NCBI GenBank assembly: GCA_963662795.1
Contig: OY759746.1
Span: 1,920,001-1,984,000 of the forward strand
Direction of reading: 5' to 3'
Length of the DNA: 64,000 bases
DNA from: Spirochaetia bacterium
Lineage (GTDB): Bacteria > Spirochaetota > Spirochaetia > CADAEX01
Shown: piece after piece, positions 2,143 to 52,304 of the stretch
Numbering within the stretch: the stretch's first letter is position 1
How the letters are laid out: each line of letters starts with the position of its first letter
Notes under the pieces: generated by a model
Seen by the model: the letters and a program-made list of their open reading frames with translations, nothing else
What the model was told of the DNA's origin: nothing
Database searches by the model: none
Program-made: the position numbers and the translations under genes

Positions 2143-2394
2143 GTCCAGCCTTGGCTCCACCGTGCGGCCTGGACAAGAAGCCTGGCCACTACGTATAACA
2201 GCGAATGACCGGTTCCGGCTGTTTCTAAGAAAGCAGCCTCCACCCAAATTGCCAAAATAATTCATATTAAGAATAATGGAATAAGGATAAACTTTTGGAG
2301 TGAGAAACATTATCGGCAACTTCGGTCATTCGCGGGACGTTATAAGCAATGTTCCCGCAAGAAGGGACCGCCCGGACCTCCGGCCGACGGGCGA
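2143..2394 (+). repeat. Composite repeat R2 (arm A | arm B)
   Basis: TAAC 2196-2199, GTT 2339. Confidence 0.9.
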
Positions 2395-2440
2395 GGATAT
2401 GCAATATAATAATATATGTTATGTATATTTAGGGGAAAAA

Positions 2441-3883
2441 ATGAGTTATATAAGAAATGAAATAATAGATGAAGAAATTAATAATCATTATAAACCGCCA
2501 ATAATTACTGCTTCTGCTCAATCATTGCCTTTCAATAATATTGGTGATCGCGGATTTGAAATATTGATATATCGAATATTTAAAAATACTGATTATTTTA
2601 AGAAACAAATTCAATATGATAGAGTTGAACTGATGGAAGGAACTGCTGATAGAGGTAGAGATGTATGCCTTATTGATGAGCATAATAAGGTAAAAGGTGT
2701 TATTCAATGTAAAAACTATCAAGAAAAAATTACTAAACCCAAATTAATTAAAGAGATATTAAAGTTTTTAATATTTATAATTATTTCTGATGAAGAATAT
2801 TCCCTTTCCAATTATTTTATTGTTTCTCCTTCTGGAATTAATTCAAAAGCTAAAGATCTGATTAGAAATTTTTGTCAAAATATCAAAGTTGAGCCAATTG
2901 AAAAATATTTTAATGATTTAAAGGAAGAGTTTTCTTCATTTGAAGATTTAATATATACCAATTTAAAAGAAAAAATTAATGAAATGCTTGAGACAATTTC
3001 TGTAACTGAAATCAATGGTATTGATTTGACAGAAATATTATATAAATATCCAGATAATTTGGAAAATCATTTCAAGGTAGTTAATGTAGTCTCTATTAAA
3101 AAAAATGAAGAAATGCTTGATAACAAATTGAGAGAATTTGGATTAAAAACTTTGACTGATAATGATCTTCAGTTAATTCAAAAAAGAATTGGATTTCTTC
3201 CTGAAAATAAAAGATTTAGATTTATGAACGTAGACTTTTATGGTTTACCAGAAAATCTAATTGTTAAAAATAAAAGTAAGATGATTCCAGTAATTGAAAA
3301 ATTGATAAAAGTACAAGGTGATTTATCAAAAATACTTTTAGATTATATTAATAATGAGATACATGATCAGATATTTAATAGAATAACATTACCATATCTG
3401 ACCACTGGGAAAGTACATCCATTTTCAGTACAAGTTGCAAGTCCGTATATATATAAACTATCTTCAACAGCTTTATTGTCTAAGCAAATTCCGATTGATT
3501 TAGCAAAAAAAATGTATTCCAAAATACTAGAAAATAGAGAAAAATTGATTGAAGAAATTGAGAGAGAAATATTTGAAGTAGCAAAGAAATCGTTTCAAAA
3601 TGATTATTCAACGTTGAAAGGTACAGAAGCTTTAATTAAATACAAAATTAATGTGTTGAAAACTCATTTATTAAAAGGATTCATAAATATTGAAGACGTA
3701 GAAATTCAATACAAAAAGGACAAAGAGACTATACTGCCTATTATGAATGAAATCTATGAATATATTTATGAATCAATAGTGTCTCCTTTAACAATTGTTC
3801 TTCATGAAATATCCGTTTGGGAAGAACCAGACTTTCTAAATAAGGTTGCATCGGATAATAAGAAATTAAAAGACAATACATAA
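2441..3883 (+). CDS. Restriction-endonuclease-like (Mrr/PD-(D/E)xK) domain protein
   Basis: FEIL...DRGRD...IQCK motif; likely start ATG 2441 after AGGGG RBS (the ORF-track start runs into the repeat). Confidence 0.7.
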   Translation: MSYIRNEIIDEEINNHYKPPIITASAQSLPFNNIGDRGFEILIYRIFKNTDYFKKQIQYDRVELMEGTADRGRDVCLIDEHNKVKGVIQCKNYQEKITKPKLIKEILKFLIFIIISDEEYSLSNYFIVSPSGINSKAKDLIRNFCQNIKVEPIEKYFNDLKEEFSSFEDLIYTNLKEKINEMLETISVTEINGIDLTEILYKYPDNLENHFKVVNVVSIKKNEEMLDNKLREFGLKTLTDNDLQLIQKRIGFLPENKRFRFMNVDFYGLPENLIVKNKSKMIPVIEKLIKVQGDLSKILLDYINNEIHDQIFNRITLPYLTTGKVHPFSVQVASPYIYKLSSTALLSKQIPIDLAKKMYSKILENREKLIEEIEREIFEVAKKSFQNDYSTLKGTEALIKYKINVLKTHLLKGFINIEDVEIQYKKDKETILPIMNEIYEYIYESIVSPLTIVLHEISVWEEPDFLNKVASDNKKLKDNT

Positions 3884-3945
3884 CAATTACATTCAACTGA
3901 ATATTTTATTTGTACAGGTAGAGTAATTACCTGAAAGTTTGAGAA

Positions 3946-4236
3946 GTCCAGCCTTGGCTCCGCCGTACGGCTTGAACAAGAAGCGGGAACACTGCTTATA
4001 ACAGCGATTATTTCGCTGCGCTCCCTATGGTCGCTTGGGCTCCTGCCAGTTGAGCTGGCAGATCGCCATATTTTGTTTTCATTAAACCAGAATAATTATT
4101 GTTAGATTCTTTTCAAGTCTGAAAAAGTCAAATAAAAGTATTTTAGAGTTTAGTCCCAAAACATCGAATAATCGCGGGACGTTCTCCGAAATACCGCCCT
4201 AAGAGAACGCCGCCCGGACCTTTGGCCGACGGGCGA
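3946..4236 (+). repeat. Composite repeat R3 (arm B | arm C)
   Basis: TAAC 3999-4002, GTT 4181. Confidence 0.9.
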
Positions 4237-4296
4237 AGAATGAAAATGATGAAAATATTATTATAACTCTATATTTTGTAAGAAAATATAAAAATG

Positions 4297-4325
4297 TAGA
4301 CATTTTAACTATTAAGTTCTATAAT
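4297..4325 (+). promoter_or_regulatory. Putative sigma70 promoter
   Basis: TAGACA-17bp-TATAAT upstream of AAGGAG RBS and ATG 4351. Confidence 0.55.
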
Positions 4326-4350
4326 AAATATTATCCTAAAGGAGTTTAAT

Positions 4351-4692
4351 ATGATGGATGTTTTGGGTATAGAAAAAGTTCTATGTGAACTTTCCCAGCA
4401 TGCTAGTCTTGATTTAATTTCAGAAAAAAATAAGGAATATTTAATACGTTCAAATAAAAGACTCAAGGCATATCTTTTTAATGAAAAAGTTGATGAATCA
4501 ATTTTAAAAAATACAGAAGAGCCAATAGTTTTTATAAATAAAATATTTTCAGTTGAACAAAACGAAAAAAATACTTTAGAATATTTAAAAAAATTTGTTG
4601 AAAGTGTAGAAAATAACCAATTAGAAAATTATAAAAATATTTTTTTATATTATAAGAGAAGTGAATACAATAAAAATTTATTTTGTAGCTAA
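4351..4692 (+). CDS. Hypothetical protein (possibly N-terminus of next ORF)
   Basis: ORF with RBS; same frame as 4693 and separated only by TAA. Confidence 0.6.
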   Translation: MMDVLGIEKVLCELSQHASLDLISEKNKEYLIRSNKRLKAYLFNEKVDESILKNTEEPIVFINKIFSVEQNEKNTLEYLKKFVESVENNQLENYKNIFLYYKRSEYNKNLFCS

Positions 4693-5862
4693 ATGGAAAT
4701 TAATGATGATTATATATTCCATTCTTTGTTAAGTACTCAAAAAATATTTAAAAAAATTGAAAAATATTATTTTACTGATTCAAATATTTATGAGTTATTA
4801 AAAAATATAAATATTGTTTTGAGTGATTTTCTCCAAAATTATAATGCTTATTCTCATTCTGATGTAATGGATATCGTTAATACTTTAAATGAAATCGAAG
4901 AATATATTGTCAATTCAGTACCAAAAAAATATCCAAATGAATTAAAAATATTGCTTAATTATATATGGAAAAATACTGTTGAGTTATCAGATTTAAATAT
5001 TCTGATTACACAAAAACCAAATTTATCCTATCACCATATGAAAGTTGACATTGTAAAAGATAATTATGTATTTTTCTGTATACCTAAACATTATAAAAAT
5101 GAAATATTATTGAATTCAATAGTACTTCATGAATTAGGTCATTATTATGATAAAAAAGATAATACAACTCCAATTATCCGTTCTGAAATAATTCCATTAG
5201 AATTAACACTTGAAGCAAAAAAACAACAAATTGATCCGATATCTTGGTACAGAGAACTATTTGCTGATCTTTTTTCAGTAAAGACAGGAAGTTTTAGTTG
5301 TTTCTTTTCCCTCTACGAAACAATAATAAATCATGATTTTGTTATTAATCAAATTACAGGATCAGATTCACATCCATACAGTATTTATAGATTTATATTG
5401 ATAAAAAATTATTTGATTCAAAAACATAAAGCTTTTTTTAACAAATCTAAATACGGGAAAAAGATAAATACACTAATCACAGATTGTGAAAAAAAATATG
5501 AAAATATATTGTTGTTAGATAATACAAAAATTGAAAAACTATATGGCTATTATCTATATGAACATTTTTTAGCAATTGAAAAAGGATTATTTGAAAGTAT
5601 TAAAGAAATTGAATTAAATAATGCTATAGATAGTTATATAGATCAAATAATACATCTAATCCCACCAAAAATTGTTAAAAACGATACTTTGATAAGTTTA
5701 GTAATATCGGGTTGGCTCGCATATTATTTTGAGAGAGATAAAATTGCTGAAAGAGCTAATATTGATAAAAATGATTTAGAAAATATCAGAAAAATTGTTA
5801 ATAATCTGATAAGAAAATCAATAAGAAATGCAGATGCTTATTCTCTTTGGGTAATTAAATGA
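4693..5862 (+). CDS. HEXXH zincin-like protein
   Basis: LHELGH...ELFAD...SHP motifs. Confidence 0.65.
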   Translation: MEINDDYIFHSLLSTQKIFKKIEKYYFTDSNIYELLKNINIVLSDFLQNYNAYSHSDVMDIVNTLNEIEEYIVNSVPKKYPNELKILLNYIWKNTVELSDLNILITQKPNLSYHHMKVDIVKDNYVFFCIPKHYKNEILLNSIVLHELGHYYDKKDNTTPIIRSEIIPLELTLEAKKQQIDPISWYRELFADLFSVKTGSFSCFFSLYETIINHDFVINQITGSDSHPYSIYRFILIKNYLIQKHKAFFNKSKYGKKINTLITDCEKKYENILLLDNTKIEKLYGYYLYEHFLAIEKGLFESIKEIELNNAIDSYIDQIIHLIPPKIVKNDTLISLVISGWLAYYFERDKIAERANIDKNDLENIRKIVNNLIRKSIRNADAYSLWVIK

Positions 5863-6473
5863 AATTACTAAATTACGAAGGTTTAAATGAAAAAATTAAT
5901 AATTACAATGATTTGGAAAATAGTATTTTTATTGAACCTTTATTAGATGTAAGGCAAATATCTTCGGTTTGTGTAGATTTAAGATTAGATGTAAATTTTT
6001 ATGTTCCCGTAAAAACTAATGAATCATTAATTTCATGTTGTAAAGGTTCAGAAGATATTGAGAACTTTTTTGAAAGCACATACCGTAAAATTGGAGATAG
6101 TTTTATTATTTATCCAAATCAATTTATTATAATGAATACTTTAGAATATATAAGATTACCTAAAAATATACACGCAGAAGTTGTAATAAGATCTTCGTTT
6201 GAAAGATTAGGATTGTATTTATATTCAATTGTTCAACCAGGATATTCTGGAGTTCTAACCTTGAGTTTGAAAAGTAGTGCAGAAACTCCAGTAGAATTAG
6301 TAGTTGGATCAAGAATTGCACAAATTAAATTTTTTGATAATAAAAAAAATAAAAAATATTCAAGTTACAGTGAAAGTGCAAAGTATTTTTGTGCCGTTGA
6401 ACCTGAATTATCAAAAATATTCAAAGATGATGATATTGAAATACTTAATAAAATAAAAAATGTAAATGCCTAG
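5859..6473 (+). CDS. dcd: dCTP deaminase (dUTPase-fold)
   Basis: VDLRL, TLEYIRLP, RSSFERLG, PGYSGVLTL and RIAQ motifs. Confidence 0.85.
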   Translation: MKLLNYEGLNEKINNYNDLENSIFIEPLLDVRQISSVCVDLRLDVNFYVPVKTNESLISCCKGSEDIENFFESTYRKIGDSFIIYPNQFIIMNTLEYIRLPKNIHAEVVIRSSFERLGLYLYSIVQPGYSGVLTLSLKSSAETPVELVVGSRIAQIKFFDNKKNKKYSSYSESAKYFCAVEPELSKIFKDDDIEILNKIKNVNA

Positions 6474-6483
6474 ACATTATTTA

Positions 6484-6760
6484 GTCCAGCCCTTGCCTCC
6501 GGCCTATCGGTCTGGACAAGAAAGGGCGGTACTTCCGAGAACAGAGGATAAAGCGCTTCGCTCGGAGTACCTCGCTTGGCCTTCGGTATATTTTACTATC
6601 ATTTAAATGAGAATAATTGAATAATTATCTTTTTTTATATTTTATTAATCAAACACAAGAGATTTCTATAGTTTAAGCCGTAAAACATCGCTTATCCTCG
6701 GGACGTTATCCACAATGCCCCCACAAGAGAACATCGCCCGGACCTCCGGCCGACGGGCGA
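6484..6760 (+). repeat. Composite repeat R4 (arm C | arm D)
   Basis: GAAC 6539-6542, GTT 6705. Confidence 0.9.
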
Positions 6761-6852
6761 GGATTAGCGCAATATATAATAAATATGAATTATAATAAAG
6801 GTATTTAAAATTAGATGAATAATAAAAAGTTATAATTGCAAAGGAGAAAAAG

Positions 6853-7815
6853 ATGTGTATAGAAACAATAGCTAATTATTTAGATCAGTATCAGAATAGA
6901 TTTTATGACTATTCTCATAATGAACATATAGAACGCTGGATTTCTCAATTTAATAATCAAGATATAATAATAAATGAACTTGCCCACATAATGGATAAGG
7001 TTTTCATTGAAGAACATAATGAAACAACTTTTTTTGAAAATCTTTTACAAAATCCTAAAATTATTGCTGATATAGGACCCTCAGGGAGTTATTCAATTCT
7101 AAATATACAAAGGAATGGGATAAGTCAGACAATTTATTCTAGAAAAATGCAAGAAGTATTTAAAAATGTTCTTGATGAAGATGTTCCTATAAATGATTTT
7201 ACAAAATCTGTTTTGATATATGTGGATGATTTTATGTTTTCTGGTATGAAAGCAAGACATGATATTTTAAATTTATTTGAAGAAAATGAAAAGAAAAAAG
7301 TTGTATATATTTTTATTGGAATACACAGTAATGCAACTTATTATTTATCTAAAACATTTAAGAATGAAAAAATCAATAATACAGTTTGGCGCTGTATACC
7401 TTTTGAAAATACATTATTTAAAAAAGATTTTTCAGATGTTTTTTGGCCAAAAAATAATATTAGATATTACCAAGAAGTCATAAACTATAAAGAAAGGTAT
7501 CTGGACAGAGATTTAGAACTACGATCTGATTCTTCAACAAGCATAGGAAGTTTGGAGCTTTTTACAAGCAGTGAAAATAGGGAAATAATTGAAAATGAGT
7601 TTCTTTTAGCTGGAATAAAAATAATTAATGAATGCAATACGGATATACCCCCTCTAGGGGTATCAGCTTTTAAAGGTATTGGTTTTGGTGGTACTGCAAT
7701 GAGTTATCGAAACATTCCAAATAATACGCCAATATGCTTATGGTGGGGAAATCCAACTAATTCCGGAGGACTTGGTAATTGGTACCCATTAATGATGAGA
7801 AGAGTATATGATTGA
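6853..7815 (+). CDS. Phosphoribosyltransferase-like protein (conflict-system PRTase type)
   Basis: PRPP-loop-like YVDDFMFSG; C-terminal PLG...NIPNNT...WYPL. Confidence 0.65.
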   Translation: MCIETIANYLDQYQNRFYDYSHNEHIERWISQFNNQDIIINELAHIMDKVFIEEHNETTFFENLLQNPKIIADIGPSGSYSILNIQRNGISQTIYSRKMQEVFKNVLDEDVPINDFTKSVLIYVDDFMFSGMKARHDILNLFEENEKKKVVYIFIGIHSNATYYLSKTFKNEKINNTVWRCIPFENTLFKKDFSDVFWPKNNIRYYQEVINYKERYLDRDLELRSDSSTSIGSLELFTSSENREIIENEFLLAGIKIINECNTDIPPLGVSAFKGIGFGGTAMSYRNIPNNTPICLWWGNPTNSGGLGNWYPLMMRRVYD

Positions 7816-8419: not shown

Positions 8420-8484
8420 TTCATTGTATTAATTTGTAAAGGTAAAGGATTAAAAGCAGAATAATTACATTGTAATTTTAAGAA

Positions 8485-8759
8485 GTCCGGCCTTGGCTTC
8501 CAGCCGTACGGCCTGGACAAGAAGTGGGGGCACTGGTGGATAACAGAGGATAATTCGCTGCGCTCGGAGTACCTCGCTTGGCCTGCGGCATATTTTGCTA
8601 TCATCAATCTTGAATAGTAAAAAGTTAAACTCTTTTCAAGATTAACAAAGCAGACATAAATGTTTTAGAGTTTAAACCGCAAAACATCGCTTATCCTCAG
8701 GACGTTATCCACAATGCCCCCACAAGATGCAATCGCCCGGACCTCCGGCCGACGGGCGA
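8485..8759 (+). repeat. Composite repeat R5 (arm D | arm D)
   Basis: TAAC 8541-8544, GTT 8704. Confidence 0.9.
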
Positions 8760-10816: not shown

Positions 10817-11090
10817 GTCCGGCCTTGGCTTCCAGCCGTGCAGCCCGGACAAGAAGTGGGGGCACTGGTGGATAACAGCGGTTAAAGCGCTACGCTCGGA
10901 TTACCTCGCTTGGCCTGCGGCAAACATCGTAGAGATTAAACTACAACTTTTAGAAGCAACAAGTTTTTAAATAAAGAAATTACATCTTGATATTAAATAT
11001 TCTTGGTCTACGATGCTTCGCTTAACCGCGGGACGTTATCCACAATGCCCCCACAAGATGCAATCGCCCGGACCTCCGGCCGACGGGCGA
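10817..11090 (+). repeat. Composite repeat R6 (D|D)
   Basis: TAAC 10873-10876, GTT 11035. Confidence 0.9.
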
Positions 11091-11755: not shown

Positions 11756-12046
11756 GTCCAGCCTTGGCTCCGCCGTGCAGCCTGGACAAGAAGTGGGGGC
11801 ACTGGTGGATAACAGCGATTATTTCGCTGCGCTCCCGATGGTCGCTTGGGCTCCTGCCAGTTGAGCTGGCAGGAGCCATATTTTGTTTTCATAAAACTGG
11901 AACAACATGTATTTTATGCTTTTTAAAGTTTAAAAAACTAAATAAAAGTATTCTAGAGTTTAGCCACAAAACATCGAATAATCGCGAGACGTTATCCACA
12001 ATGCCCCCACAAGAAGCGATCGCCCGGACCTCCGGCCGACGGGCGA
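11756..12046 (+). repeat. Composite repeat R7 (D|D)
   Basis: TAAC 11810-11813, GTT 11991. Confidence 0.9.
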
Positions 12047-12802: not shown

Positions 12803-13093
12803 GTCCGGCCTTGGCTCCGCCGTACGGCCTGGACAAGAAGTGGGGGCACTGTTGGATAACAGCGATTATTTCGCTGCGCTCCCGATGGTCGCTTGGGCTC
12901 CTGCCAGTTGAACTGGCAGATCGCCATATTTTGTTTTCATAAAACCTTAACGACATGTGTTTTATGCTTTTCAAGTTTGAAAAACCAAATAAATGTATTT
13001 TAGAGTTTAGCCACAAAACATCGAATAATCGCGGGACGTTATCCACAATGCCCCCACAAGAGGAAATCGCCCGGACCTCCGGCCGACGGGCGA
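12803..13093 (+). repeat. Composite repeat R8 (D|D)
   Basis: TAAC 12857-12860, GTT 13038. Confidence 0.9.
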
Positions 13094-15042: not shown

Positions 15043-15315
15043 GTCCGGCCTTGGCTTCCCGCCGTGCGGCCTGGACAAGAAGTGGGGCACTGGTGGATAA
15101 CAGAGGATAAGGCGCTTCGCTCGGAATACCTCGCTTGGCCTGCGGCAAACATCGTAGATTTTGAACTACAATTGCTATAATTAACAATTTTTTGAAGAAA
15201 AATATTGCAACTTTGGAATATTCATTCTTGGGCTACGATGCGTCGCTTATCCTCGGGACGTTATCCACAATGCCCCCACAAGAGGACACCGCCCGGACCT
15301 CCGGCCGACGGGCGA
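15043..15315 (+). repeat. Composite repeat R9 (D|D)
   Basis: TAAC 15098-15101, GTT 15260. Confidence 0.9.
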
Positions 15316-16405: not shown

Positions 16406-16677
16406 GTCCGGCCTTGGCTCCGCCGTACGGCCTGGACAAGAAGTGGGGGCACTGGTGGATAACAGAGGATAAAGCGCTTCGCTCGGAGTACCTCGCTTGG
16501 CCTAGTGGCATATTTTGCATTCTTATATACAACACAATTATCAATATTTTGCTTACAATTTCGATAAAAACAAACAATTGAATCAATTAGTATTTTGCAA
16601 AACATCGCTTATCCTTGGAACGTTATCCACAATGCCCCCACAAGATGCGATCGCCCGGACCTCCGGTCGACGGGCGA
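16406..16677 (+). repeat. Composite repeat R10 (D|D)
   Basis: TAAC 16460-16463, GTT 16622. Confidence 0.9.
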
Positions 16678-17540: not shown

Positions 17541-17809
17541 GTCCAGCCTTGGCTCCGCCGTGCGGCCTGGACAAGAAGTGGGGGCACTGGTGGATAACAG
17601 AGGATAAAGCGCTGCGCTCGGAGTACCTCGCTTGGCCTGCGGCACACATCGTAGGATTTGAACTTTAACATCTAGAAACAACCACTTTTTAAAGAATAAT
17701 AAAACAGCTTTGAATATCAATGTTATCTTACGATGCGTCGCTTATCCTCGGGACGTTATCCACAATGCCCCCACAAGAGAAATCGCCCGGACCTCCGGCC
17801 GACGGGCGA
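17541..17809 (+). repeat. Composite repeat R11 (D|D)
   Basis: TAAC 17595-17598, GTT 17755. Confidence 0.9.
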
Positions 17810-19200: not shown

Positions 19201-19471
19201 GTCCGGCCTTGGCTCCGCCGTGCAGCCTGGACAAGAAGTGGGGGCACTGGTGGATAACAGCGGGTAAGAAGCTGCGCTCGGAGTACCTCGCTTGGGCTTC
19301 GCCATATTTTGCTATCATTAAACCAAAGATGTTATTGTTTTATTCTTTTCGAGATTAATATTCCAGACTTTAGTGTTTTGAAACTTTCTCGCAAAACATC
19401 TTTTACCCGCGGAACATTATCCACAATGCCCCCACAAGAGGAAATCGCCCGGACCTCCGGCCGACGGGCGA
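19201..19471 (+). repeat. Composite repeat R12 (D|D) with mutated core GTT>ATT
   Basis: TAAC 19255-19258; ATT at 19416. Confidence 0.9.
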
Positions 19472-20331: not shown

Positions 20332-20605
20332 GTCCAGCCTTGGCTTCCAGCCGTGCGGCCTGGACAAGAAGTGGGGGCACTGGTGGATAACAGAGGATAA
20401 TGCGCTTCGCTCCCTTTGGTCGCTTGGGCTTCGCCACACATCGTAGGTTTTGAAATGCAACATCAATAAACATCAGGTTTTAAAAGAAATAAATTACACC
20501 TTTATGTTATTCATTCTTGGGTTACGATGCGTCGCTTATCCTCGGGACGTTATTTGCAATACCTTCGCGAAGAGAAAATCGCCCGGGCCCCTGGCCGACG
20601 GGCGA
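20332..20605 (+). repeat. Composite repeat R13 (D|E)
   Basis: TAAC 20388-20391, GTT 20549. Confidence 0.9.
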
Positions 20606-21505: not shown

Positions 21506-21780
21506 GTCCAGACCTTGGCTCCGCCCTAACGGCCTGGACAAGACGCGAAGGTACTGCAAATAACAGAGGATAATTCGCTACGCTCGGAGTACCTCGCTTG
21601 GCCTTCGGCATATTTTGCTATCATTAAAACAGTTCATATTATGTTTTTACTCTATTTAAATATATTTCTTAAAAACTATCCTGTTGAAAAAGGTTTTAGC
21701 AAAACATCGCTTATCCTCAGGACGTTATTTGCAATACCTTCGCGAAGAGAAAATCGCCCGGGCCCCTGGCCGACGAGCGA
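21506..21780 (+). repeat. Composite repeat R14 (E|E)
   Basis: TAAC 21561-21564, GTT 21724. Confidence 0.9.
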
Positions 21781-22715: not shown

Positions 22716-23008
22716 GTCCAGACCTTGCCTCCGGCCTATCGGTCAGGACAAGACGCGAAGGTACTGCAAATAACAGCGATTATTTCGCTGCGCTCCCTGT
22801 GGTCGCTTGGGCTCCTGCCAGTTGAGCTGGCAGATCGCCATATTTTGTTTTCATAAAACCGGAACAACATGTGTTTTATACTCTTCAAGTTTGTAAAAAC
22901 TAAATAAAAGTATTTTAGAGTTTAGCCACAAAACATCGAATAATCGCGAGACGTTCTCCGAAATACCGCCCCAAGAGGACACCGCCCGGACCTCCGGCCA
23001 ACGGGCGA
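22716..23008 (+). repeat. Composite repeat R15 (E|C)
   Basis: TAAC 22771-22774, GTT 22953. Confidence 0.9.
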
Positions 23009-24299: not shown

Positions 24300-24569
24300 T
24301 CCAAGCCTTGGCGTTGCCGTGCGGCTTGGAAGAAGGGGCGGTACTTCCGAGAACAGCGGGTAAGAAGCTGCGCTCGGAGTACCTCGCTTGGGCTTCGCCA
24401 TATTTTGCTATCATGAAACCAAAACAATTATCATTATATCTTTTCAAGTGTGATAAGAGCTGTCAAAGTATTTGAAAAAGTTTTAGCCGCAAAACATCTT
24501 TTACCCGCGAAACGTTCTCCGAAATACCGCCCCAAGATGCGATCGCCCGGACCTCCGGCCCACGGGCGA
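24300..24569 (+). repeat. Composite repeat R16 (C|C)
   Basis: GAAC 24351-24354, GTT 24514. Confidence 0.9.
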
Positions 24570-25350: not shown

Positions 25351-25619
25351 CCCCAAGCCTTGGCGGTGCCGTGCGGCTTGGGAGAAGGGGCGGTACTTCC
25401 GAGAACAGAGGATAATGCGCTTCGCTCCCTTTGGTCGCTTGGGCTTCGCCACACATCGTAGGTTTTGAACTACAACTTCTATAAACAACAAGTTTTGGAA
25501 GAAATATATTGCAACTTTGAAATATTCATTCTTGGACTACGATGCGTCGCTTATCCTCGGGACGTTATCCACAATGCCCCCACAAGATGCGATCGCCCGG
25601 ACCTCCGGCCGACGGGCGA
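25351..25619 (+). repeat. Composite repeat R17 (C|D)
   Basis: GAAC 25403-25406, GTT 25564. Confidence 0.9.
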
Positions 25620-26541: not shown

Positions 26542-26816
26542 GTCCGGCCTTGGCTTCCAGCCGTACGGCCTGGACAAGAAGTGGGGGCACTGGTGGATAA
26601 CAGCGGTTAAAGCGCTACGCTCGGAGTACCTCGCTTGGCCTACGGCAAACATCGTAGGATTTTATCTACAGCTATTGGGAACATCAAGTTTTAAAAGAAA
26701 GAAATATTTAGATTTTTATTTATTATTCTTGGTCTACGATGCTTCGCTTAACCGCGGGACGTTATCCACAATGCCCCCACGAGATACAATCGCCCGGACC
26801 TCCGGCCGACGGGCGA
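26542..26816 (+). repeat. Composite repeat R18 (D|D)
   Basis: TAAC 26598-26601, GTT 26761. Confidence 0.9.
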
Positions 26817-27801: not shown

Positions 27802-28054
27802 GTCCGGCCTTGGCTCCGCCGTGCGGCCTGGACAAGAAGTGGGGGCACTGGTGGATAACAGCGGTTAAAGCGCTTCGCTCGGATTACCTCGCTTGACCTT
27901 CGGTATAAAGGCGCAAAAAAAAATTGATAAGTTCTATGAAAGTAATTAAAACTTGTTGGTTTAAAATAAAAAACGCCTTCATCGCTTAACCGCGGGACGT
28001 TATAAGCAATGTTCCCGCAAGAGAAAACCGCCCGGACCTCCGGCCGACGGGCGA
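27802..28054 (+). repeat. Composite repeat R19 (D|B)
   Basis: TAAC 27856-27859, GTT 27999. Confidence 0.9.
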
Positions 28055-28824: not shown

Positions 28825-29097
28825 GTCCGGCCTTGGCTCCGCCGTACGGCCTGGACAAGAAGCGGGAACACTGCTTATAACAGCGGTTCAAGCGCTTCGC
28901 TCGGAGTACCTCGCTTGGCCTACGGCAAACATCGTAGGATTTAAACAATAACTTTTTGAAACAACAAGTTTTTAAAAGACAATGAATAAAAGTATTGTGT
29001 TTACAATTCTTGATCTACGATGCTTCGCTTAACCGCGGGACGTTATAAGCAATGTTCCCGCAAGAGGAAATCGCCCGGACCTCCGGCCGACGGGCGA
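28825..29097 (+). repeat. Composite repeat R20 (B|B)
   Basis: TAAC 28878-28881, GTT 29042. Confidence 0.9.
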
Positions 29098-30492: not shown

Positions 30493-30764
30493 GTCCAGCC
30501 TTGGCTCCGCCGAGCGGCTTGGACAAGAAGCGGGAACACTGCTTATAACAGCGGTTCAAACGCTACGCTCGGAGTACCTCGCTTGGCCTTCGGCATATTT
30601 TATTATCATTCAATCAAAAAAATCTGTGTTTTCTTCTTTTCAAGTGTATTAAACAAACAAAAAAGATTTATAGAGTTTGAGCCATAAAACATCGCTTAAC
30701 CGCGGAACGTTATATGCAATACGACCCCAAGAGGAAATCGCCCGGACCTCCGGCCCGCGGGCGA
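30493..30764 (+). repeat. Composite repeat R21 (B|F)
   Basis: TAAC 30546-30549, GTT 30709. Confidence 0.9.
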
Positions 30765-32273: not shown

Positions 32274-32516
32274 GTCCGGCCTTGGCGGTGCCGTGCGGCC
32301 TGGACAAGAAGGGGTCGTACTGCATATAACAGCGGGTAAAACACTGCGCTCGCCGTAGCTCGCTTGGGCTCCGCCAAACATCGCAGCTGAAAATAAAAGT
32401 AAAAGAACAAAACAGTTTTTGCTGAAGTATTCAGAAATTGCGATGCTTCGTTTACCCGCGGGACGTTAGCAGCAATGCCCCCGCCAAGAAAGAGGTGCGT
32501 GCCGTCCTGGCACGCA
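32274..32516 (+). repeat. Composite repeat R22 (F|G; variant hairpin B)
   Basis: TAAC 32327-32330, GTT 32465. Confidence 0.88.
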
Positions 32517-33264: not shown

Positions 33265-33556
33265 AATCAATCTGCCGTCCATGGCAGCTTGATTAAGGCG
33301 GGGGTCACTGCTGCTAACAGAGGATAATTCGCTGCGCTCGGAGTACCTCGCTTGGCCTGCGGCATATTTTGCTATCATTAAAACAGTTCAAATTATGTTT
33401 TTACTATATTTAAATGTATTCCCTAAAAGTATTATGTTGAAAAAGGTTTTAGCAAAACATCGCTTATCCTCGAGACGTTATGCGAAAGGCTGGCCGAAGA
33501 GGAATAGGCTGGGGGCGGGGGAGGGGAAGACGCCGCCGCACATCGTGTGCGCCGAA
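33265..33556 (+). repeat. Composite repeat R23 (G|H; variant hairpins)
   Basis: TAAC 33315-33318, GTT 33477. Confidence 0.85.
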
Positions 33557-33736
33557 GAAAAATTAATAAACTGTGATTTTTATAATCTGTAAGAGTGTTT
33601 GTATAAATTGCCATTATAAAAGCAGAAAAAATGAAAATATAATTTTATTTTAGCAGTTCCTTTCGTTTCATTTGATTATGGATTGGTTAATAAACAAAAA
33701 AAAATAAATCGCATAAAATGTAATATATTCTTGTAA

Positions 33737-33874
33737 ATGAAAATTATTTGGGATAAAGGTGAAAATAAAACTCTTAAGCTTGAAAGATGTATTTCTTTCA
33801 AGATATTTGCGGATTTGATTCTGGGGCTAGTTATAAAGTTAATTTGCAAAATATTAACCTTGGAATATAGCTGA
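33737..33874 (+). pseudogene. 45-codon BrnT-like toxin remnant in nearly ORF-less cassette (copy 1)
   Basis: MKIIWDKGENKTLKLERCISF resembles the BrnT N-terminus (WD..KN..N...GISF). Confidence 0.5.
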
Positions 33875-33889
33875 TTATGATAATTTTCA

Positions 33890-34155
33890 CCGTCTCACAC
33901 TTCCATGTGTTCGACGAAAACCGCCCCAGCCAAGAAGAGCCGGCCAGCCCATCGCATAACAGCGAATGGCCGGTTCCTGCTGTTTCTAAGGAAACAGCCT
34001 CCACCCAAATTGCCGAAATAATTCATGTTAAGAATAATGGAATAGAGTATAAACTTTTGGAGTAAAAAACACCATCGGCAACTTCGGTCATTCGCGAGAC
34101 GTTATCCACAATATCATCGCAAGAGGCATCGCCCGGACCTCCGGCCAACGGGCGA
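33890..34155 (+). repeat. Composite repeat R24 (H|I)
   Basis: TAAC 33957-33960, GTT 34101. Confidence 0.88.
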
Positions 34156-35961: not shown

Positions 35962-36253
35962 GTCCGGCCTTGGCGTTGCCGTGCGGCCCTGGACAAGAAG
36001 CGATGATACTGGTGGATAACAGCGATTATTTCGCTGCGCTCCCTTTGGTCGCTTGGGCTCCTGCCAGTTGAGCTGGCAGATCGCCATATTTTGTTTTCAT
36101 AAAACCAGAACGACATGTGTTTTATGCTTTTTATGTTTGAAAAATCAAATAAATGTATTTTAGAGTTTAGCAACAAAACATCGAATAATCGCGGGACGTT
36201 ATCCACAATGCCCCCACAAGATGCGATCGCCCGGACCTCCGGCCGACGGGCGA
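35962..36253 (+). repeat. Composite repeat R25 (I|D)
   Basis: TAAC 36017-36020, GTT 36198. Confidence 0.9.
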
Positions 36254-37286: not shown

Positions 37287-37562
37287 GTCCGGCCTTGGCT
37301 TCCAGCCGTGCGGCCTGGACAAGAAGTGGGGACACTGGTGGATAACAGAGGATAATGCGCTTCGCTCGGAGTCCCTCGCTTGGCCTGCGGCACATTTTAC
37401 TTTTTTTAAATTATGACAATTTTTGTTATATAGTTTTCAATTTTATCACTACGGATAAAAAATGTTTTTAGAGTTTGTGACGTAAAACGTCGCTTATCCT
37501 CAGGACGTTATCCACAATGCCCCCACAATAGAAAATCGCCCGGACCTCCGGCCGACGGGCGA
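37287..37562 (+). repeat. Composite repeat R26 (D|D)
   Basis: TAAC 37343-37346, GTT 37507. Confidence 0.9.
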
Positions 37563-38601: not shown

Positions 38602-38895
38602 GTCCAGCCTTGGCTCCGCCGTGCGGCTTGGACAAGAAGTGGGGGCACTGGTGGATAACAGCGGTTAAAGCGCTTCGCTCGGAGTACCTCGCTTGGGCTC
38701 CTGGCTGTTGAGCAGCCAGTTCGCCAAACAGCGTAGGATTTTGAACTGTAACTTTATAAAACAACAAGTTTTAAACGACAATAAATAAAAGCTTTGAGTT
38801 TTCTATTCTTCGCCTACGATGCTTCGCTTAACCGCGGGACGTTATCCACAATGCCCCCACAAGAGAAATCGCCCGGACCTCCGGCCGACGGGCGA
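38602..38895 (+). repeat. Composite repeat R27 (D|D)
   Basis: TAAC 38656-38659, GTT 38841. Confidence 0.9.
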
Positions 38896-39602: not shown

Positions 39603-39875
39603 GTCCGGCCTTGGCTTCCAGCCGTACGGCCTGGACAAGAAGTGGGGGCACTGGTGGATAACAGAGGATAAAGCGCTTCGCTCGGAGTACCTCGCTTGGG
39701 CTTCGCCACACATCGTAGAGAGTGAACAACACCAACTATATACAACCAGTTTTAAAAGAAAAATAAAACAGCTTTGAATATCAATGCTTATCTTACGATG
39801 CGTCGCTTATCCTCAGGACGTTAGCAGCAATACGTCCCCAAGAGAACGCCGCCCGGACCTCCGGCCGACGGGCGA
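39603..39875 (+). repeat. Composite repeat R28 (D|J)
   Basis: TAAC 39659-39662, GTT 39820. Confidence 0.9.
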
Positions 39876-42554: not shown

Positions 42555-42802
42555 GTCCAGCCTTGGCTCCGCCGTGCGGCTTGGACAAGAAGGGGACGTA
42601 CTGCTGCTAACAGCGAATGACCGGTTCCGGCTGTTTCTAAGGAAACAGCCTCCACTCAAATTGCCGAAATAATACATGTTAAGAATAATGGAATAGAGTA
42701 TAAACTTTTGGAGTGAAAAACACCATCGGCAACTTCGGTCATTCGCTGTTAGCAGCAGTACGTCCCCAAGAGAAAACGCCCGGACCTCCGGCCGACGGGC
42801 GA
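42555..42802 (+). repeat. Composite repeat R29 (J|J), symmetrised to a perfect 32-bp inverted repeat
   Basis: TAAC 42608-42611, GTT 42748. Confidence 0.9.
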
Positions 42803-44576: not shown

Positions 44577-44845
44577 GTCCGGCCTTGGCTCCGCCGTGCG
44601 GCCTGGACAAGAAGGGGACGTACTGCTACTAACAGAGGATAATTCGCTGCGCTCGGAGTACCTCGCTTGGCCTTCGGCATATTTTACTTTCACTTAATCC
44701 AGACAATTTGTGTTTTATCCTTTTTAATGGAAAAAAACAGGAAACGGTTTATAAAGTTTGAGCCGTAAAACATCGCTTATCCTCGGGACGTTATCCACAA
44801 TATCATCGCAAGAGAACACCGCCCGGACCTCCGGCCAACGGGCGA
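44577..44845 (+). repeat. Composite repeat R30 (J|I)
   Basis: TAAC 44630-44633, GTT 44790. Confidence 0.9.
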
Positions 44846-47371: not shown

Positions 47372-47668
47372 GTCCGGCCTTGGCGTTGCCGTGCGGCCCT
47401 GGACAAGAAGCGATGATACTGGTGGATAACAGCGGTTCAAGCGCTTCGCTCGGAGCACCTCGCTTGGCCTTCGGCAAACATCGTAGGATTTTATCTACAT
47501 AATTATAGCGTAACAAGTTTTAACAGGCGATAAATAAAAACTTTGTGTTTTTCATTCTTGGTCTACGATGCTTCGCTTAACCGCGGGGCGTTATGCGAAA
47601 GGCTGGCCGAAGAGGAATAGGCTGGGGGCGGGGGAGAGGAAGACGCCGCCGCACATCGTGTGCGCCGA
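47372..47668 (+). repeat. Composite repeat R31 (I|H)
   Basis: TAAC 47427-47430, GTT 47590. Confidence 0.88.
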
Positions 47669-47848
47669 AGAAAAATTAATAAACTGAGAGTTTTATAATC
47701 TGTAAGAGTGTTTGTATAAATTACCATTATAAAAGCAGAAAAAATGAAAATATAATATTATTTTAGTAGTTCCTTTCGTGTGATTTGATTATGGATTGGG
47801 TAAAAAACAAAAAAAATAAATCGCATAAAATGTAATATTTTCTTGTAA

Positions 47849-47986
47849 ATGAAAATTATTTGGGATAAAGGTGAAAATAAAACTCTTAAGCTTGAAAGAT
47901 ATATTTCTTTCAAGATATTTGCGGATTTGATTCTGGGGCTAGTTATAAAGTTAATTTGCAAAATATTAACCTTGGAATATAGCTGA
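47849..47986 (+). pseudogene. BrnT-like remnant (copy 2 of duplicated cassette)
   Basis: Near-identical to 33737-33874. Confidence 0.5.
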
Positions 47987-48002
47987 TTATGATAATTTTC
48001 AT

Positions 48003-48306
48003 CGTCTCACACATCCATGTGTTCGACGAAGACCGCCCCAGCCAAGAAGAGCCGGCCAGCCCATCGCATAACAGCGATTATTTCGCTGCGCTCCCTGTGG
48101 TCGCTTGGGCTCCTGCCAGTTGAGCTGGCAGATCGCCATATTTTGTTTTCATAAAACCGGAACAACATGTGTTTTATGCTCTTCAAGTTTGTAAAAACCA
48201 AATAAAAGTATTTTAGAGTTTAGTCACAAAACATCGAATAATCGCGAGACGTTATGCACAATATCATCGCAAGAAGAAATCGCCCGGACCTCCGGCCGAC
48301 GGGCGA
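48003..48306 (+). repeat. Composite repeat R32 (H|I')
   Basis: TAAC 48069-48072, GTT 48251. Confidence 0.88.
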
Positions 48307-49748: not shown

Positions 49749-50022
49749 GTCCAGCCTTGGCTTCCAGCCGTGCGGCTTGGACAAGAAGCGATGATACTGG
49801 TGCATAACAGAGGATAAAGCGCTTCGCTCGGAGTACCTCGCTTGGGCTTCGCCACACATCGTAGGTTTTAACTACTCCGATAAGAAGTAGCAAGTTTTTA
49901 AAATAAATAAATTACAACATTGTGTTGTCTATTCGTGGACTACGATGCGTCGCTTATCCTCAGGACGTTATACGTAATGGCCAGGCAAGAGAAAATCGCC
50001 CGGACCTCCGGCCGACGGGCGA
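49749..50022 (+). repeat. Composite repeat R33 (I'|A)
   Basis: TAAC 49805-49808, GTT 49967. Confidence 0.9.
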
Positions 50023-50068
50023 GGATAAGTTGTATAAAAGCTTAAAAAAAGTATAAGATATTATTAAA

Positions 50069-51067
50069 ATGAAAAAAATATATTTAGATGAAAAATATAT
50101 AAGATTTAATCAAAAACGTTCAAAAAAAGCAATTAAGGAAAGACAAAATAGAAAATATAGTCATGGGCGTTTTAGTAATAAAATAAAAATTAGTGATAAA
50201 CGAATATTCAATGGATTATATTTAAACGCACCAGAAATATTTAGTTTATTAAATAATTTTAATGAAACAATGGATTTCTTGAAAAAATTAGATGACAATT
50301 CATGGCATGGGAGATCAATAAAAATAGATTTAAAAAGTGTAAAATATTTAACTCCTGATACAATTTTGTGTATAATAGCATTCTTGTATAATTCAGAGAC
50401 TCATAATAAAAATGTAAATATTAAAGGTAATGCGCCTCTGGATCCTTATTGCAGACAAGTATTTTTAGACTCTGGATTTTATAAATATGTAAACAGCAGT
50501 TATAATCATAACGATAGTGAAGAAATATTATCAATACGTTCAGATGAACTTGTTGACCCTGAAGAAGCAGGGTCTGTTGTAAAATTTGTGAGAGATAAAT
50601 TAAATATTAAGAGAAATCAAATGACAAAAGCTGTATATACTACAATTATGGAAGCTATGAATAATGTTCGTGAACATGCATATACCGGAAGAAAAAATAA
50701 AAGATGGTGGTTAATGGCTTTACCAGAAAAGAGTTGTGATATAATACATTTTGCATTATTAGATAATGGGCGAGGGATTCCTACTACAATTAAGAAAAAA
50801 ATTCCTGAATATTTTTTTTCAAGTGATTCGGAATTAATACGATCAACAGTTTTAGAAAAAAATAGGAGTGAAACTAGATTGATATATCGAGGACTTGGAT
50901 TGCCGAGTATGAAAAGTTTAGTTGATAAAAAAATGATAAAAAATCTTAATATTATATCAAAAAATGGCTTGTATTGTGTTGATTCTGATAATGCGGTAAA
51001 TTTAAATTACGATTTTAATGGTACATTAATATGTTGGGATTTTGTAAAGGAGGAAATTAATGGCTAA
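50069..51067 (+). CDS. STAS-like + GHKL/HATPase protein
   Basis: EAMNNVREHA, DNGRGI, RGLGL and GT boxes. Confidence 0.8.
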   Translation: MKKIYLDEKYIRFNQKRSKKAIKERQNRKYSHGRFSNKIKISDKRIFNGLYLNAPEIFSLLNNFNETMDFLKKLDDNSWHGRSIKIDLKSVKYLTPDTILCIIAFLYNSETHNKNVNIKGNAPLDPYCRQVFLDSGFYKYVNSSYNHNDSEEILSIRSDELVDPEEAGSVVKFVRDKLNIKRNQMTKAVYTTIMEAMNNVREHAYTGRKNKRWWLMALPEKSCDIIHFALLDNGRGIPTTIKKKIPEYFFSSDSELIRSTVLEKNRSETRLIYRGLGLPSMKSLVDKKMIKNLNIISKNGLYCVDSDNAVNLNYDFNGTLICWDFVKEEING

Positions 51068-51377
51068 GGATATAAGCATTTCTAGAGATTATACAACCAC
51101 ACCTGGAGCACGTTATCGAAAAGATGGTAAATATTCGGGAGAAGATTTTAGAGAGGAATATCTCGAACCACTTTTTAATGAAGAATCAGATGAAGAAATT
51201 ATAATAAATTTAGATGGCGTTGAAGGGTATTCAACAGCATTTCTTGAAGAGGTATTTGGAGGGTTGGTAAGATTATTTGGAAAAAAAGTAGTACTTAAAA
51301 GAATAAAAATTATTTCTTATGAAGAACCATTATTGATTAAAGAAATTGAAAATTATATAGATAAGGCAATTAAATGA
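51060..51377 (+). CDS. STAS-like DUF4325 protein
   Basis: PGARY..G..SGEDFR...LDGVEGYSTAFLEEVFGGL. Confidence 0.85.
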   Translation: MAKDISISRDYTTTPGARYRKDGKYSGEDFREEYLEPLFNEESDEEIIINLDGVEGYSTAFLEEVFGGLVRLFGKKVVLKRIKIISYEEPLLIKEIENYIDKAIK

Positions 51378-51961
51378 AAAATAAAACTCGTGGATTTATA
51401 ATAATTGTAGGTATTATTCTAAGTGTAATGATTTTCTTTGCTTGCATCACAATTAATTATTGGAATATCGTAAAAAACAGTTTTTTTTCATATACGTTAA
51501 GCGATTTATTTGAATTAATTGTTACAATGGTTATTGGCCTTGTTGTAGCTGTATATTTCACTGTCGCAATGAATAGTTCGAGCAAAAGATTGGAAATAAT
51601 AATAGAAAATATTGGTATGCTTCAAGAATATTATAAAAATATTATAACAAATTATACAAAAAATTGTAATAAAAAATTAGACAAATGTAGTAAGGATTAT
51701 ATTATAAGAGTATTTCGAATGGCATCAAACGAATATGTTAATATTAAAGAATATTTAGAATATGAAAAAATATTCACTAAAGATATAAATGACATATATT
51801 TAATAATACAGAGTAATCATTTCGTTTTTAAAGAGCGAATAACAGATGAACCATTTTCTGATGACTTTATAATTAAAGAAAAAGAAATTAACTTAGCTTC
51901 AGAAAGTTATTATATAATAAAACAAAATATTCAAAAATTAAAAATGTGTCTTTATAAATAA
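51374..51961 (+). CDS. Two-TM hypothetical protein
   Basis: Two hydrophobic segments; translationally coupled. Confidence 0.7.
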   Translation: MKNKTRGFIIIVGIILSVMIFFACITINYWNIVKNSFFSYTLSDLFELIVTMVIGLVVAVYFTVAMNSSSKRLEIIIENIGMLQEYYKNIITNYTKNCNKKLDKCSKDYIIRVFRMASNEYVNIKEYLEYEKIFTKDINDIYLIIQSNHFVFKERITDEPFSDDFIIKEKEINLASESYYIIKQNIQKLKMCLYK

Positions 51962-52012
51962 TATTTACAAAAATAATAAAAAAATATATATAACAATAGT
52001 CATTTAAAAATA

Positions 52013-52304
52013 GTCCGGCCTTGGCTTCCAGCCGTACGGCTCGGGCAAGAAGCCTGGCCACTCCGTATAACAGCGATTATTTCGCTGCGCTCCCTTTGGT
52101 CGCTTGGGCTCCTGCCAGTTGAGCTGGCAGATCGCCATATTTTGTTTTCATAAAACCAGAACGACATGTATTCTATGCTTTTTATGTTTGAAAAATCAAA
52201 TAAATGTATTTTAGAGTTTAGCCACAAAACATCGAATAATCGCGAGACGTTATCCACAATGCCCCCACAAGAGAAAATCGCCCGGACCTCCGGCCGACGG
52301 GCGA
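52013..52304 (+). repeat. Composite repeat R34 (A|D)
   Basis: TAAC 52068-52071, GTT 52249. Confidence 0.9.

Follow-up and report, generated by a model that had tools for sequence, protein, structure and literature searches.

The 64,000-nt stretch of DNA analysed here, hereafter the window (coordinates 1-64,000, G000:C1:1920001-1984000 of the source Spirochaetia genome G000, a single contig of 3.93 Mb), is the mid-part of a long, one-directional array of gene cassettes in which every recombination site consists of a central core between two short arms. The statistics of these sequences showed that the boundary G|TT at the right end of the core is the main exchange point, as in integrons, and that it unlinks the core fully from the downstream cassette. 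There was good support for a second exchange point, used less often, within the invariant AAC-A on the left edge of the core, where the core behind an unchanged body would be replaced. The whole analysis consisted of sequence comparison and computed folding, and all that is said below about recombination is drawn from these. The loci compared were a genome of the same genus (G002), a genome of another genus of the same family (G011) and a Spirochaetia metagenome contig (L010).

The array spans genome positions 1,848,874 to ~2,180,900 (330 kb, 8.4% of the genome) and was parsed into 191 sites, all on the + strand, delimiting ~190 cassettes; 39 of the sites fall within the window, along which they recur as a compound repeat of ~300 nt (Table 1). 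The + strand of G000 beyond the array held no site of this composite type, and the right-hairpin motif described below, with 160-169 copies genome-wide, was found exclusively on the + strand and confined to 1,850,162-2,180,018. Read 5' to 3' on that strand, a site begins with a GC-rich hairpin, followed by AAGAAG, a ~20-nt left arm ending in ATAAC, the core, and a right half made of GTT plus a ~20-nt right arm, AAGAG and a second GC-rich hairpin. The cores are 69-181 nt long. Their first bases, A-G-(C/A)-G, lie within an L''-like box, the interior has small GC-rich side hairpins and an AT-rich middle, and the 3' end is made of the L' box, which complements the first box, and the spacer GGGAC. 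L'' is longer than L' by one base and the spacer is asymmetric (A versus GGGAC), so that the 191 sites have the palindrome of the attC type, AAC...GTT enclosing L boxes with an extra base in L''. They are longer than the Treponema attC sites described in PMC3607928 (63-132 bp). The site at 42611-42748 is the only one in the window without GGGAC; there AACAGCG and CGCTGTT pair perfectly and the arms are homotypic (L06/R04), giving a near-perfect palindrome.

The arms proved to be a property of the cassette and not of the site. Of the 190 cassettes, 179 ran between reverse-complementary arms, the right one of one site and the left one of the next, whereas the two arms flanking one core matched in only 55 of 187 sites. 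Such a pattern is expected of a crossover at G|TT, because the excised circle joins the cassette's own arms around its own core. The same relation, in the 7-bp R box of classical cassettes, was reportedly used by Hall, Brookes and Stokes in 1991 to place the crossover. Leader clustering distinguished ~28 arm types, left and right types pairing one to one with similar numbers, while single linkage chained almost all of them together. Same-type arms adjoined above chance (55/187 versus ~12% of random pairs; mutual information 1.54 versus 1.22, not reached in any of 5000 shuffles). The arms were mismatched in 11 of the 190 cassettes. One of them, at genome position 2059803, departs from its G011 orthologue in the 17-nt right arm alone, with homologous core and body on either side, as if recombination within the conserved right hairpin had caused a deletion. 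An insertion-sequence-like repeat of ~1277 nt, 99-100% identical between copies, lies inside seven cassettes (b32, b121, b132, b138, b158, b174 and b177), all outside the window (for example at genome ~1,903,000); several of them are among those with mismatched arms, which suggests a rearrangement mediated by the insertion sequence in these cassettes.

Cores of one family stood behind many kinds of arm. In the window, TAACAGCGATTATTTCG occurred in seven exact + strand copies, at 3999, 11810, 12857, 22771, 36017, 48069 and 52068, a number that none of 100 shuffles reached; all seven copies of this family (C00) carried the inner hairpin CTGCCAGTTGAGCTGGCAG, and their left arms were, in order, L03, L00, L00, L08, L02, L10 and L04. 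Exact matches and arm typing thus agreed with the initial annotation of this DNA, which had placed the seven copies behind six arm types. The AGCGAATG family (C01), also singled out there, was recovered at 2199, 33960 and 42611 behind the arms L04, L10 and L06. Along the whole array C00 has 46 copies behind 21 arm types and C01 has 28 copies behind 13, and cores at least 99% identical followed unlike arm types in 17 pairs of C00 and 16 pairs of C01.

The initial annotation had gone further and proposed that cores are independent of both flanking cassettes, which could be checked by clustering cores and arms separately. When 39 fine core clusters were used over the 191 sites no association was seen (mutual information 1.434 versus 1.442 +/- 0.055 in shuffles), a test of low power since most clusters were singletons. 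In a coarser tabulation, with 10 arm classes and 6 core superfamilies, chi2 was 99.2 for the upstream arm, with one of 5000 shuffles as high, and 65.2 for the downstream arm, with 156 of 5000 as high; AATG-type cores were found at none of the 43 L00 sites versus 9 of the 16 L03 sites. Position by position, bases -12 to -3 on the right side tracked the core and bases +3 to +11 tracked the arm, with nil mutual information between them (z at most 1.6), the flip of allegiance lying across the invariant AC-GTT. On the left side the flip lay between -3 and +2/+3, across the invariant AAC-A, with a residual linkage between core and upstream arm of 0.01-0.28 bit out of ~1-1.7 (z up to 8.5). Segments inside the cores were clearly linked (0/3000 shuffles), yet all four combinations were present. 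The cores therefore appear as haplotype blocks with sharp edges, the right edge fully randomised and the left one largely, not wholly, so. Independence stood for the downstream arm, where there was no positional linkage, and failed for the upstream arm, to which the coarse table and the positional test showed a weak but significant linkage.

Duplicated cassettes were compared in 48 pairs of bodies aligned over their full length, counting two cores as the same at 85% identity or more. Among the 17 pairs of bodies at least 99% identical, the downstream core was the same in nine and the upstream core in two; the corresponding numbers were six and none in the 12 pairs of 95-99% identity, and one and one in the 19 pairs below 95% (82.5-94.5%, 18 of them in the counted 85-95% bin). 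Random pairs of cores were alike in 136 of 1500 cases (~9%). The 41 bodies sharing at least 95% identity formed 18 clusters, with more than one downstream core group in 11, more than one upstream group in 16, and both groups differing among copies in 10. At least 11 downstream and 21 upstream core changes, of 23 possible, were needed within these clusters, so that 12 of the 23 contrasts preserved the downstream core and 2 the upstream one. Three of the six pairs of 100% identical bodies (b41/b166, b47/b108 and b168/b179) had unrelated downstream cores. In the pair alignments identity ran from (GGGAC)GTT through the left arm to AAC and the AG common to all cores, and the swapped pair b41/b166 differed in its last 70 nt only at -41. 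Arm type L13, whose three sites all belong to paralogous bodies, was followed by three different cores, and L15, also with three sites, by three core families.

The two copies of a small duplicated cassette in the window, 96.3% identical, are surrounded by four different cores, C03 and C05 upstream and C01 and C00 downstream, as the initial annotation had noticed. This cassette has 4-5 copies of 95-99.7% identity in the genome (others at genome 1891172, 2144386 and 2126704) and a relative of ~93% identity in G011. Its downstream core is C01 in G011 and in three of the four close G000 copies, which makes the C00 at 48072 the derived state. A GC-rich 5' part replaces its usual right hairpin; it had no Rfam match, and it may be a non-coding or micro-ORF (open reading frame) cassette. 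Orthologues of other cassettes gave the same picture: three cassettes on contig C19 of G002 have G000 orthologues at 89-97% identity, and all three are followed by a different downstream core family (C01 versus C23/C13, C11 versus C00, and C07 versus C02), the identity stopping at AAC. Downstream cores were thus not always kept between orthologues, and in every case shown the breakpoint lay at AAC plus AG instead of being scattered.

The exchange at the AAC end that the initial annotation had put forward was consequently borne out, by 11 of 18 clusters, three of six identical-body pairs, three of three orthologues and the array-wide flip at AAC-A. Its further claim, that the array is made of two freely assorting, separately mobile modules, was not supported, because the downstream core was kept in 12/23 contrasts versus 2/23 for the upstream core and 136/1500 by chance. 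These proportions imply that mobility still rests mainly with the ordinary cassette, made of a body and its downstream core and cut at G|TT: the attC-like core travels with its upstream cassette, an association that is additionally broken at AAC in 11 of 23 contrasts. No sign of cores, or of cores plus the downstream body, moving as units was seen among the duplicates and their 23 contrasts.

The sites were predicted to fold as a single long hairpin on both strands (DNA parameters; z -5.3 and -6.2). With the arms of the excised circle, the computed energies were -38.9 kcal/mol for the top strand and -42.9 kcal/mol for the bottom strand, the bottom strand being the stabler in 170 of 179 sites; array junctions with unlike arms reached -26.6 and -28.7 kcal/mol (n=126), which makes the own-arm site stabler than the heterotypic junction by 12.8 (top) to 14.9 (bottom) kcal/mol. 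The left arm has a C facing an A of the right arm, so that the C·A mismatch of the top strand corresponds to a G·T pair on the bottom strand, and an extra G is often present in the left arm. Cumulative GC skew was lowest at 1.40 Mb and peaked at 3.43 Mb, which makes the + strand the leading strand and places the bottom strands of the sites on the template of the leading strand, with the top strands on the lagging-strand template. Considering the stability of own-arm sites and the adjacency of same-type arms above chance, one may speculate that the arms hold cassettes in place within the array and influence which partner is chosen. A 13-bp hairpin with a T run behind it, resembling a terminator, lies in the C00 core, and strong promoter-like matches were found in cassette leaders and not in cores; for these reasons cores may serve as terminators of the upstream cassette.

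Some cassettes have alternative flanking hairpins at their ends, for instance GCGTGCC-GTCCTGG-CACGC and CAAGCTGCC-GTCCATGG-CAGCTTG (window 32487-32530; genome 1878180-1878215), whose stems differ and whose loop GTCC(A/T)(T)GG is common. Stems that co-vary at both cassette ends suggest a recognised structure.

A recombinase gene (genome 1846782-1847801, + strand, 339 amino acids) stands at the head of the array. The first cassette of G000 (GTTATACGAAAAACCGCGCC, complement of the first left arm) begins ~155 nt past its stop codon; in L010 the distance from the recombinase gene is ~220 nt, and no conserved attI sequence was established in G000 and L010. Immediately after the stop codon, at genome 1847820-1847865 and ~100 nt before the first cassette, lies a small hairpin, AAC-TGCAGATA...TATCTGCA-GTT, which may act as a terminator or belong to an attI-like site. 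The best family match of the protein was NF040815 (XerA-like / integron integrase) with 214.5 bits, below the cut-off of 220; it scored 200.1 bits, in two pieces, against TIGR02249 (cut-off 265), 175 against XerC (cut-off 335) and 173 against XerD (cut-off 330), and its N-terminal extension of ~70 residues had no Pfam match. The insertion specific to integron integrases lies near ...KYPxAxxxWxWxxxFP...DPR...RRHH. Residues 235-258 of the recombinase were aligned opposite residues 173-238 of VchIntIA (2a3v), leaving ~42 residues absent, and alignment A1 with the canonical IntI of G011 showed 24 + 7 + 10 residues absent in all three array-adjacent recombinases, the catalytic motifs being kept. 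The integron-specific additional domain was therefore not found in the 2a3v alignment, in A1 or with TIGR02249. The wider family of the recombinase is large and annotated as 'site-specific tyrosine recombinase/integron integrase' or XerD, and the closest relatives found came from metagenome-assembled genomes that bear the label Spirochaetia.

The recombinase of L010 is 54% identical and precedes five same-strand sites with arms paired across the bodies, and that of G011 is 46% identical and precedes ~20 sites, several with mismatched arms, an array used here for orthologue comparison only. Core families of G011 match C01 (97%), C00 (91%) and C12 (88%) of G000, and some arm types are shared. 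In G000, L010 and G011 alike the recombinase lies upstream of the array and on the same strand, and this conserved position at the array head is our reason for assigning the array to the Xer-like enzyme; that it would act on folded single strands is deduced from the shape of the sites.

Canonical IntI proteins (384-400 bits) are encoded in G011, G005 and G008. A simple palindrome scan beside the canonical intI of G011 and G005 gave nothing, while a repeat search showed that the intact IntI of G011 has another array, one of canonical type, on its upstream side (L124 8487-19003; G011:C1 ~2,814,500-2,825,000). Its repeats contain ..TATAAC(G/A)(C/T)C..AGTTGAGCTG.. and differ in site type from the composite array; the AGTTGAGCTG loop recurs in the window's cores of family C00, within their inner hairpin. 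The canonical intI of G000 (genome 412089-413302; L002 1219-2184 and beyond) has a frameshift and stop codons and lies beside IS3-like transposase genes; no second array was found in G000, including the vicinity of this gene.

These observations together point, with about an even chance in our estimate, to a sedentary integron-like array in which an Xer-like recombinase exchanges cassettes mainly at G|TT and, by occasional top-strand recombination, also at AAC. The cassette would consist of TT, right arm, 5' hairpin, gene(s), 3' hairpin, left arm, AAC, core and G. As its two ~20-nt arms are complementary, they would extend the R-box stem of an attC-like hairpin in the excised circle, formed by the R box AAC/GTT, a spacer, an L box with its extra base and a long variable middle. 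The same enzyme would carry out both reactions on folded single strands. The bottom strand would be favoured, since it folds better by ~4 kcal/mol and has extra bases opposite its AAC; the folded top strands of two array sites, transiently single-stranded as lagging-strand template, would recombine occasionally with cleavage at AA|C. Such a reaction would remove the stretch that begins with core(n) and ends with left arm(m), so that core(m) would come to follow left arm(n). Its product would be exactly the one seen, and the lack of a co-inherited upstream core would be explained. Where arms are unlike, the junctions in the array would be ~13-15 kcal/mol less stable than those of the circle, which may help a large array to persist. 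For the exchange at AAC, top-strand recombination is the leading candidate that we infer.

Several points weigh against this explanation. The public runs, among which X6-X8 come from an organism sharing cassettes with G000 at 97-100% identity, consist of short contigs that end at the repeats and yielded no information on junctions, circles or strands; the contigs listed as joints fit two repeated sites. The upstream core was shared at chance level (2/23), so there is no trace of top-strand insertion of units made of a core and the downstream body, and deletion or replacement alone is compatible with the data. In six swapped pairs examined by eye the new core was not the former upstream core of the partner, barring one C00 match, which leaves top-strand excision followed by bottom-strand insertion without direct support. 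Gene conversion among cores could yield the C00 and C01 pairs of at least 99% identity, and these pairs do not date the junctions; the partly mosaic cores indicate some exchange away from AAC. The recombinase has no domain like that which reads extrahelical bases in integron integrases, and the frameshifted canonical intI of G000, 1.44 Mb away, may have played a part in the past. A bolder version, tentative and in our view rather doubtful, would have the array represent a separate integron-like gene-capture lineage, in which an Xer-type enzyme without the insertion acts on both folded strands, the core with its terminator is an exchangeable third module, and the arms are address or locking tags that stabilise the 330-kb array.

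Homologous recombination, the main rival, would account for part of the data. Cassettes of the same arm type share ~70 nt of 3' flank up to AAC-AG (hairpin, AAGAAG, left arm and AAC-AG), and RecA-type unequal crossing-over or deletion in this flank would seem to break at AAC because the homology ends there, gene conversion keeping the copies of a core alike. Individual recent swaps can be explained in this way, the more so as b41 and b166 have a single difference in this flank and as cores are partly mosaic; deletion in a flank does occur, as at genome 2059803, and the mismatched arms of 11 bodies fit with it. However, homology would shuffle cores only within one arm type, whereas C00 follows 21 types and C01 13 with weak arm-core linkage; the paralogue-only types L13 and L15 swap as often as L00 (43 sites, 2/5 clusters); and breaks at AAC, where unlike arms share ~8 nt, far outnumber breaks in the ~40-nt hairpins that are near-universal among cassettes, so that we regard this explanation as unlikely. 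Copy-choice in replication would need neither a recombinase nor a deletion: the core hairpin would stall the polymerase, which would switch template at AACAG(C/A)G and back at GGGACGTT. That cores are strong hairpins bounded by the invariant AAC-A and AC-GTT is consistent with it, as is the integrase-free excision of short cassettes by replication slippage, reported in PMC5371416 for cassettes of 60 to ~400 bp only. Two template switches at 7-8 nt each would nevertheless be required, and it would be left unexplained why the left boundary is the triplet cleaved by this class of recombinase, which makes copy-choice quite improbable.

It is also conceivable that bodies alone are mobile, their own arms pairing in single-stranded DNA while the cores are scaffolding; 179 of 190 bodies have arms complementary across them, and for the 10 of 18 clusters in which both flanking core groups differ one event per new copy would suffice. 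We find this hard to reconcile with the downstream core being kept in 12/23 contrasts versus 9% by chance, which means that at least half of the duplications took the core along, with arms lying 0.5-5 kb apart, far for a single-strand fold-back, and with an arm-core linkage that is asymmetric between left and right, contrary to what a symmetric mechanism predicts. Cores acting as small autonomous mobile elements (similar to miniature inverted-repeat transposable elements, or to attC-targeting insertion sequences or introns) that enter the AAC|GTT centre of an arm palindrome would explain the large near-identical families (46 copies of C00, 28 of C01) and their occurrence in another genus at 91-97% identity. 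Against this very improbable origin, none of the 191 sites was an empty arm-AAC-GTT-arm (the shortest core has 69 nt), nothing is encoded in the cores, each of them contains the L-box pairing of a recombination site, and in half of the recent copies the downstream core accompanies its body. Finally, false joins at repeats could have made arm and core combinations in the assembly, given the many near-identical repeats and the short-read contigs of the probable source runs, which break at every site; but a misjoin inside a repeated core would alter the order of cassettes and not an arm-AAC-core junction, the same architecture and kind of swap are present in the independent assemblies G002, G011 and L010, and the genome is one 3.93-Mb contig, so that an artefact is scarcely credible.

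Table 1. Composite sites, parts of one example site and the small duplicated cassette in the window. Sites are given as left arm / core (length in nt) / right arm; positions are window coordinates.
Feature	Position	Strand	Remarks
L05 / C02 (157) / R06	310..512	+	
L04 / C01 (139) / R02	2177..2361	+	second core family of the initial annotation
L03 / C00 (178) / R05	3980..4203	+	first core family of the initial annotation
L05 / C07 (162) / R00	6520..6727	+	
L00 / C06 (159) / R00	8522..8726	+	
Left GC-rich hairpin, example site	10817..10850	+	cassette 3' end; folds alone on both strands; family D8/D17
L00 / C12 (158) / R00	10854..11057	+	
Left arm L00, example site	10857..10876	+	R''-like AAC at 10874-10876
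Core C12, example site	10877..11034	+	158 nt; L''-like box, side hairpins, AT-rich middle, L' box, GGGAC
R'-like GTT + right arm R00, example site	11035..11057	+	first bases of next cassette
Right GC-rich hairpin, example site	11065..11089	+	CGCCCGGACCTCCGGCCGACGGGCG; 5' end of next cassette
L00 / C00 (177) / R00	11791..12013	+	terminator-like 13-bp hairpin + T run in core
L00 / C00 (177) / R00	12838..13060	+	
L00 / C14 (158) / R00	15079..15282	+	
L00 / C26 (158) / R00	16441..16644	+	
L00 / C04 (156) / R00	17576..17777	+	
L00 / C11 (157) / R00	19236..19438	+	ATT replaces GTT
L00 / C02 (157) / R08	20369..20571	+	
L08 / C03 (159) / R08	21542..21746	+	
L08 / C00 (178) / R05	22752..22975	+	
L05 / C11 (159) / R05	24332..24536	+	
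L05 / C02 (157) / R00	25384..25586	+	
L00 / C05 (159) / R00	26579..26783	+	
L00 / C27 (139) / R02	27837..28021	+	
L03 / C05 (160) / R02	28859..29064	+	
L03 / C28 (159) / R07	30527..30731	+	
L07 / C15 (134) / R12	32308..32487	+	right hairpin variant
L14 / C03 (158) / R11	33296..33499	+	
Duplicated body, copy 1	33477..33960	+	arms R11/L10; upstream core C03, downstream C01; no ORF of at least 75 amino acids
L10 / C01 (140) / R03	33938..34123	+	
L02 / C00 (177) / R00	35998..36220	+	
L00 / C29 (160) / R00	37324..37529	+	
L00 / C22 (181) / R00	38637..38863	+	
L00 / C04 (157) / R04	39640..39842	+	
L06 / C01 (136) / R04	42589..42770	+	single T replaces GGGAC spacer
L06 / C07 (156) / R03	44611..44812	+	
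L02 / C05 (159) / R11	47408..47612	+	
Duplicated body, copy 2	47590..48072	+	upstream core C05, downstream C00 (swapped); 96.3% identical to copy 1
L10 / C00 (178) / R03	48050..48273	+	
L02 / C09 (158) / R06	49786..49989	+	
L04 / C00 (177) / R00	52049..52271	+	
L00 / C30 (159) / R01	54845..55049	+	
L01 / C13 (158) / R03	56023..56226	+	
L02 / C02 (157) / R22	57456..57658	+	
L22 / C18 (156) / R06	60348..60549	+	
L04 / C16 (69) / R01	62254..62368	+	shortest core

The cassettes carry 1-3 genes of mixed functions, among them, as named by eye from ORF translations, an AbrB/MazF-like pair, an aminotransferase and an AIPR-like protein; a few cassettes (window 13170-14947 and 59379-60269) have ORFs on the - strand and yet + oriented sites. 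The G+C content of the array is 31.3% versus 39.7% for the genome, and the array terminates at an insertion sequence. A search of the window against Rfam at the gathering threshold gave no match, the region 10700-13200 had none at an E-value of at most 1, and 33400-34000 gave chance-level matches only; the sites thus belong to no curated family. A promoter scan of window positions 1-20000 found 127 candidates versus 113.5 +/- 11.5 expected and was uninformative.

Part of what is described here is already known, namely sedentary integrons, an intI gene reading the same way as the array in Treponema, attC sites that resemble one another inside a single array and rare top-strand recombination in assays. 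In the parts of the literature searched, supplements excluded, we found no array headed by a recombinase without the integron-specific domain, no cassette-specific arms of ~20 nt and no natural replacement of an attC core at its AAC end, top-strand-derived or other. At 330 kb and 191 sites, this array ranks with the largest that we found reported, the maximum among the 30 chromosomal integrons analysed in PMC5371416 being 203 cassettes. How attC sites join genes, and why the sites of one array are alike when its genes are unrelated, are open questions in integrons, and ordinary arrays have no mark of which part of a site belongs to which cassette. Since the ~20-nt arms act as natural barcodes beside every core, the history of site exchange can be read directly from them, with a hot boundary at G|TT and a cooler one at AAC. 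A recombinase apparently without the hallmark domain, together with a separate canonical integron in G011, also offers a test case for the evolution of single-strand site recognition from Xer-like enzymes.

In the pdif modules of Acinetobacter plasmids, Xer-dependent modules lie between dif-like sites of alternating orientation. The array resembles them in that an Xer-family recombinase is implicated and that inverted half-structures bound alternating units, the topology drawn in the initial annotation. Unlike pdif, a double-stranded site of ~28 bp (inverted 11-bp arms around a centre of 6-8 bp) was found at neither junction: there is no 11-6-11 dif-like site, the inverted partner of the R box lies 70-180 nt off at the far end of the core, and the sequence on the core side of AAC is no inverted copy of the arm. 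The pattern of mismatches and bulges points instead to folded single strands, and the body keeps its downstream core, an asymmetric linkage.

The array is closer to sedentary chromosomal integrons such as the Vibrio superintegron and that of Treponema, in which one tyrosine recombinase heads a long one-directional array of cassettes, promoter-poor to self-expressed and including toxin-antitoxin pairs. Like theirs, its sites are imperfect palindromes with AAC...GTT, an extra L-box base on the top-strand AAC arm and a middle that varies, the boundary is G|TT, and the first bases of a cassette complement its own end. The better-folding bottom strand is on the template of the leading strand, which also holds for 25 of 30 large chromosomal integrons (PMC5371416), and the recombinase gene reads towards the array, as does intI in Treponema (PMC3607928). 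Unlike these integrons, the recombinase here has no integron-integrase insertion and is XerA-like by its best family match, the sites are composite, of ~300 nt, with two flanking hairpins, ~28 matched arm types and cores of 69-181 nt, the cores are exchanged at the AAC end, and a canonical integron is present separately in G011. Integron integrases cleave in 5'-AAC-3', at R' on the bottom strand and at R'' on the top strand, with a strand selectivity that varies by site and depends on extra bases on the top-strand AAC arm (Nivina et al. 2016, PMC5027507), a geometry shared by the sites described here. Top-strand recombination by IntI1, known from attI x attC assays, is orders of magnitude rarer than that of the bottom strand and inverts the cassette; a similar cleavage of the R'' AAC would place the crossover exactly at the second boundary of this array.

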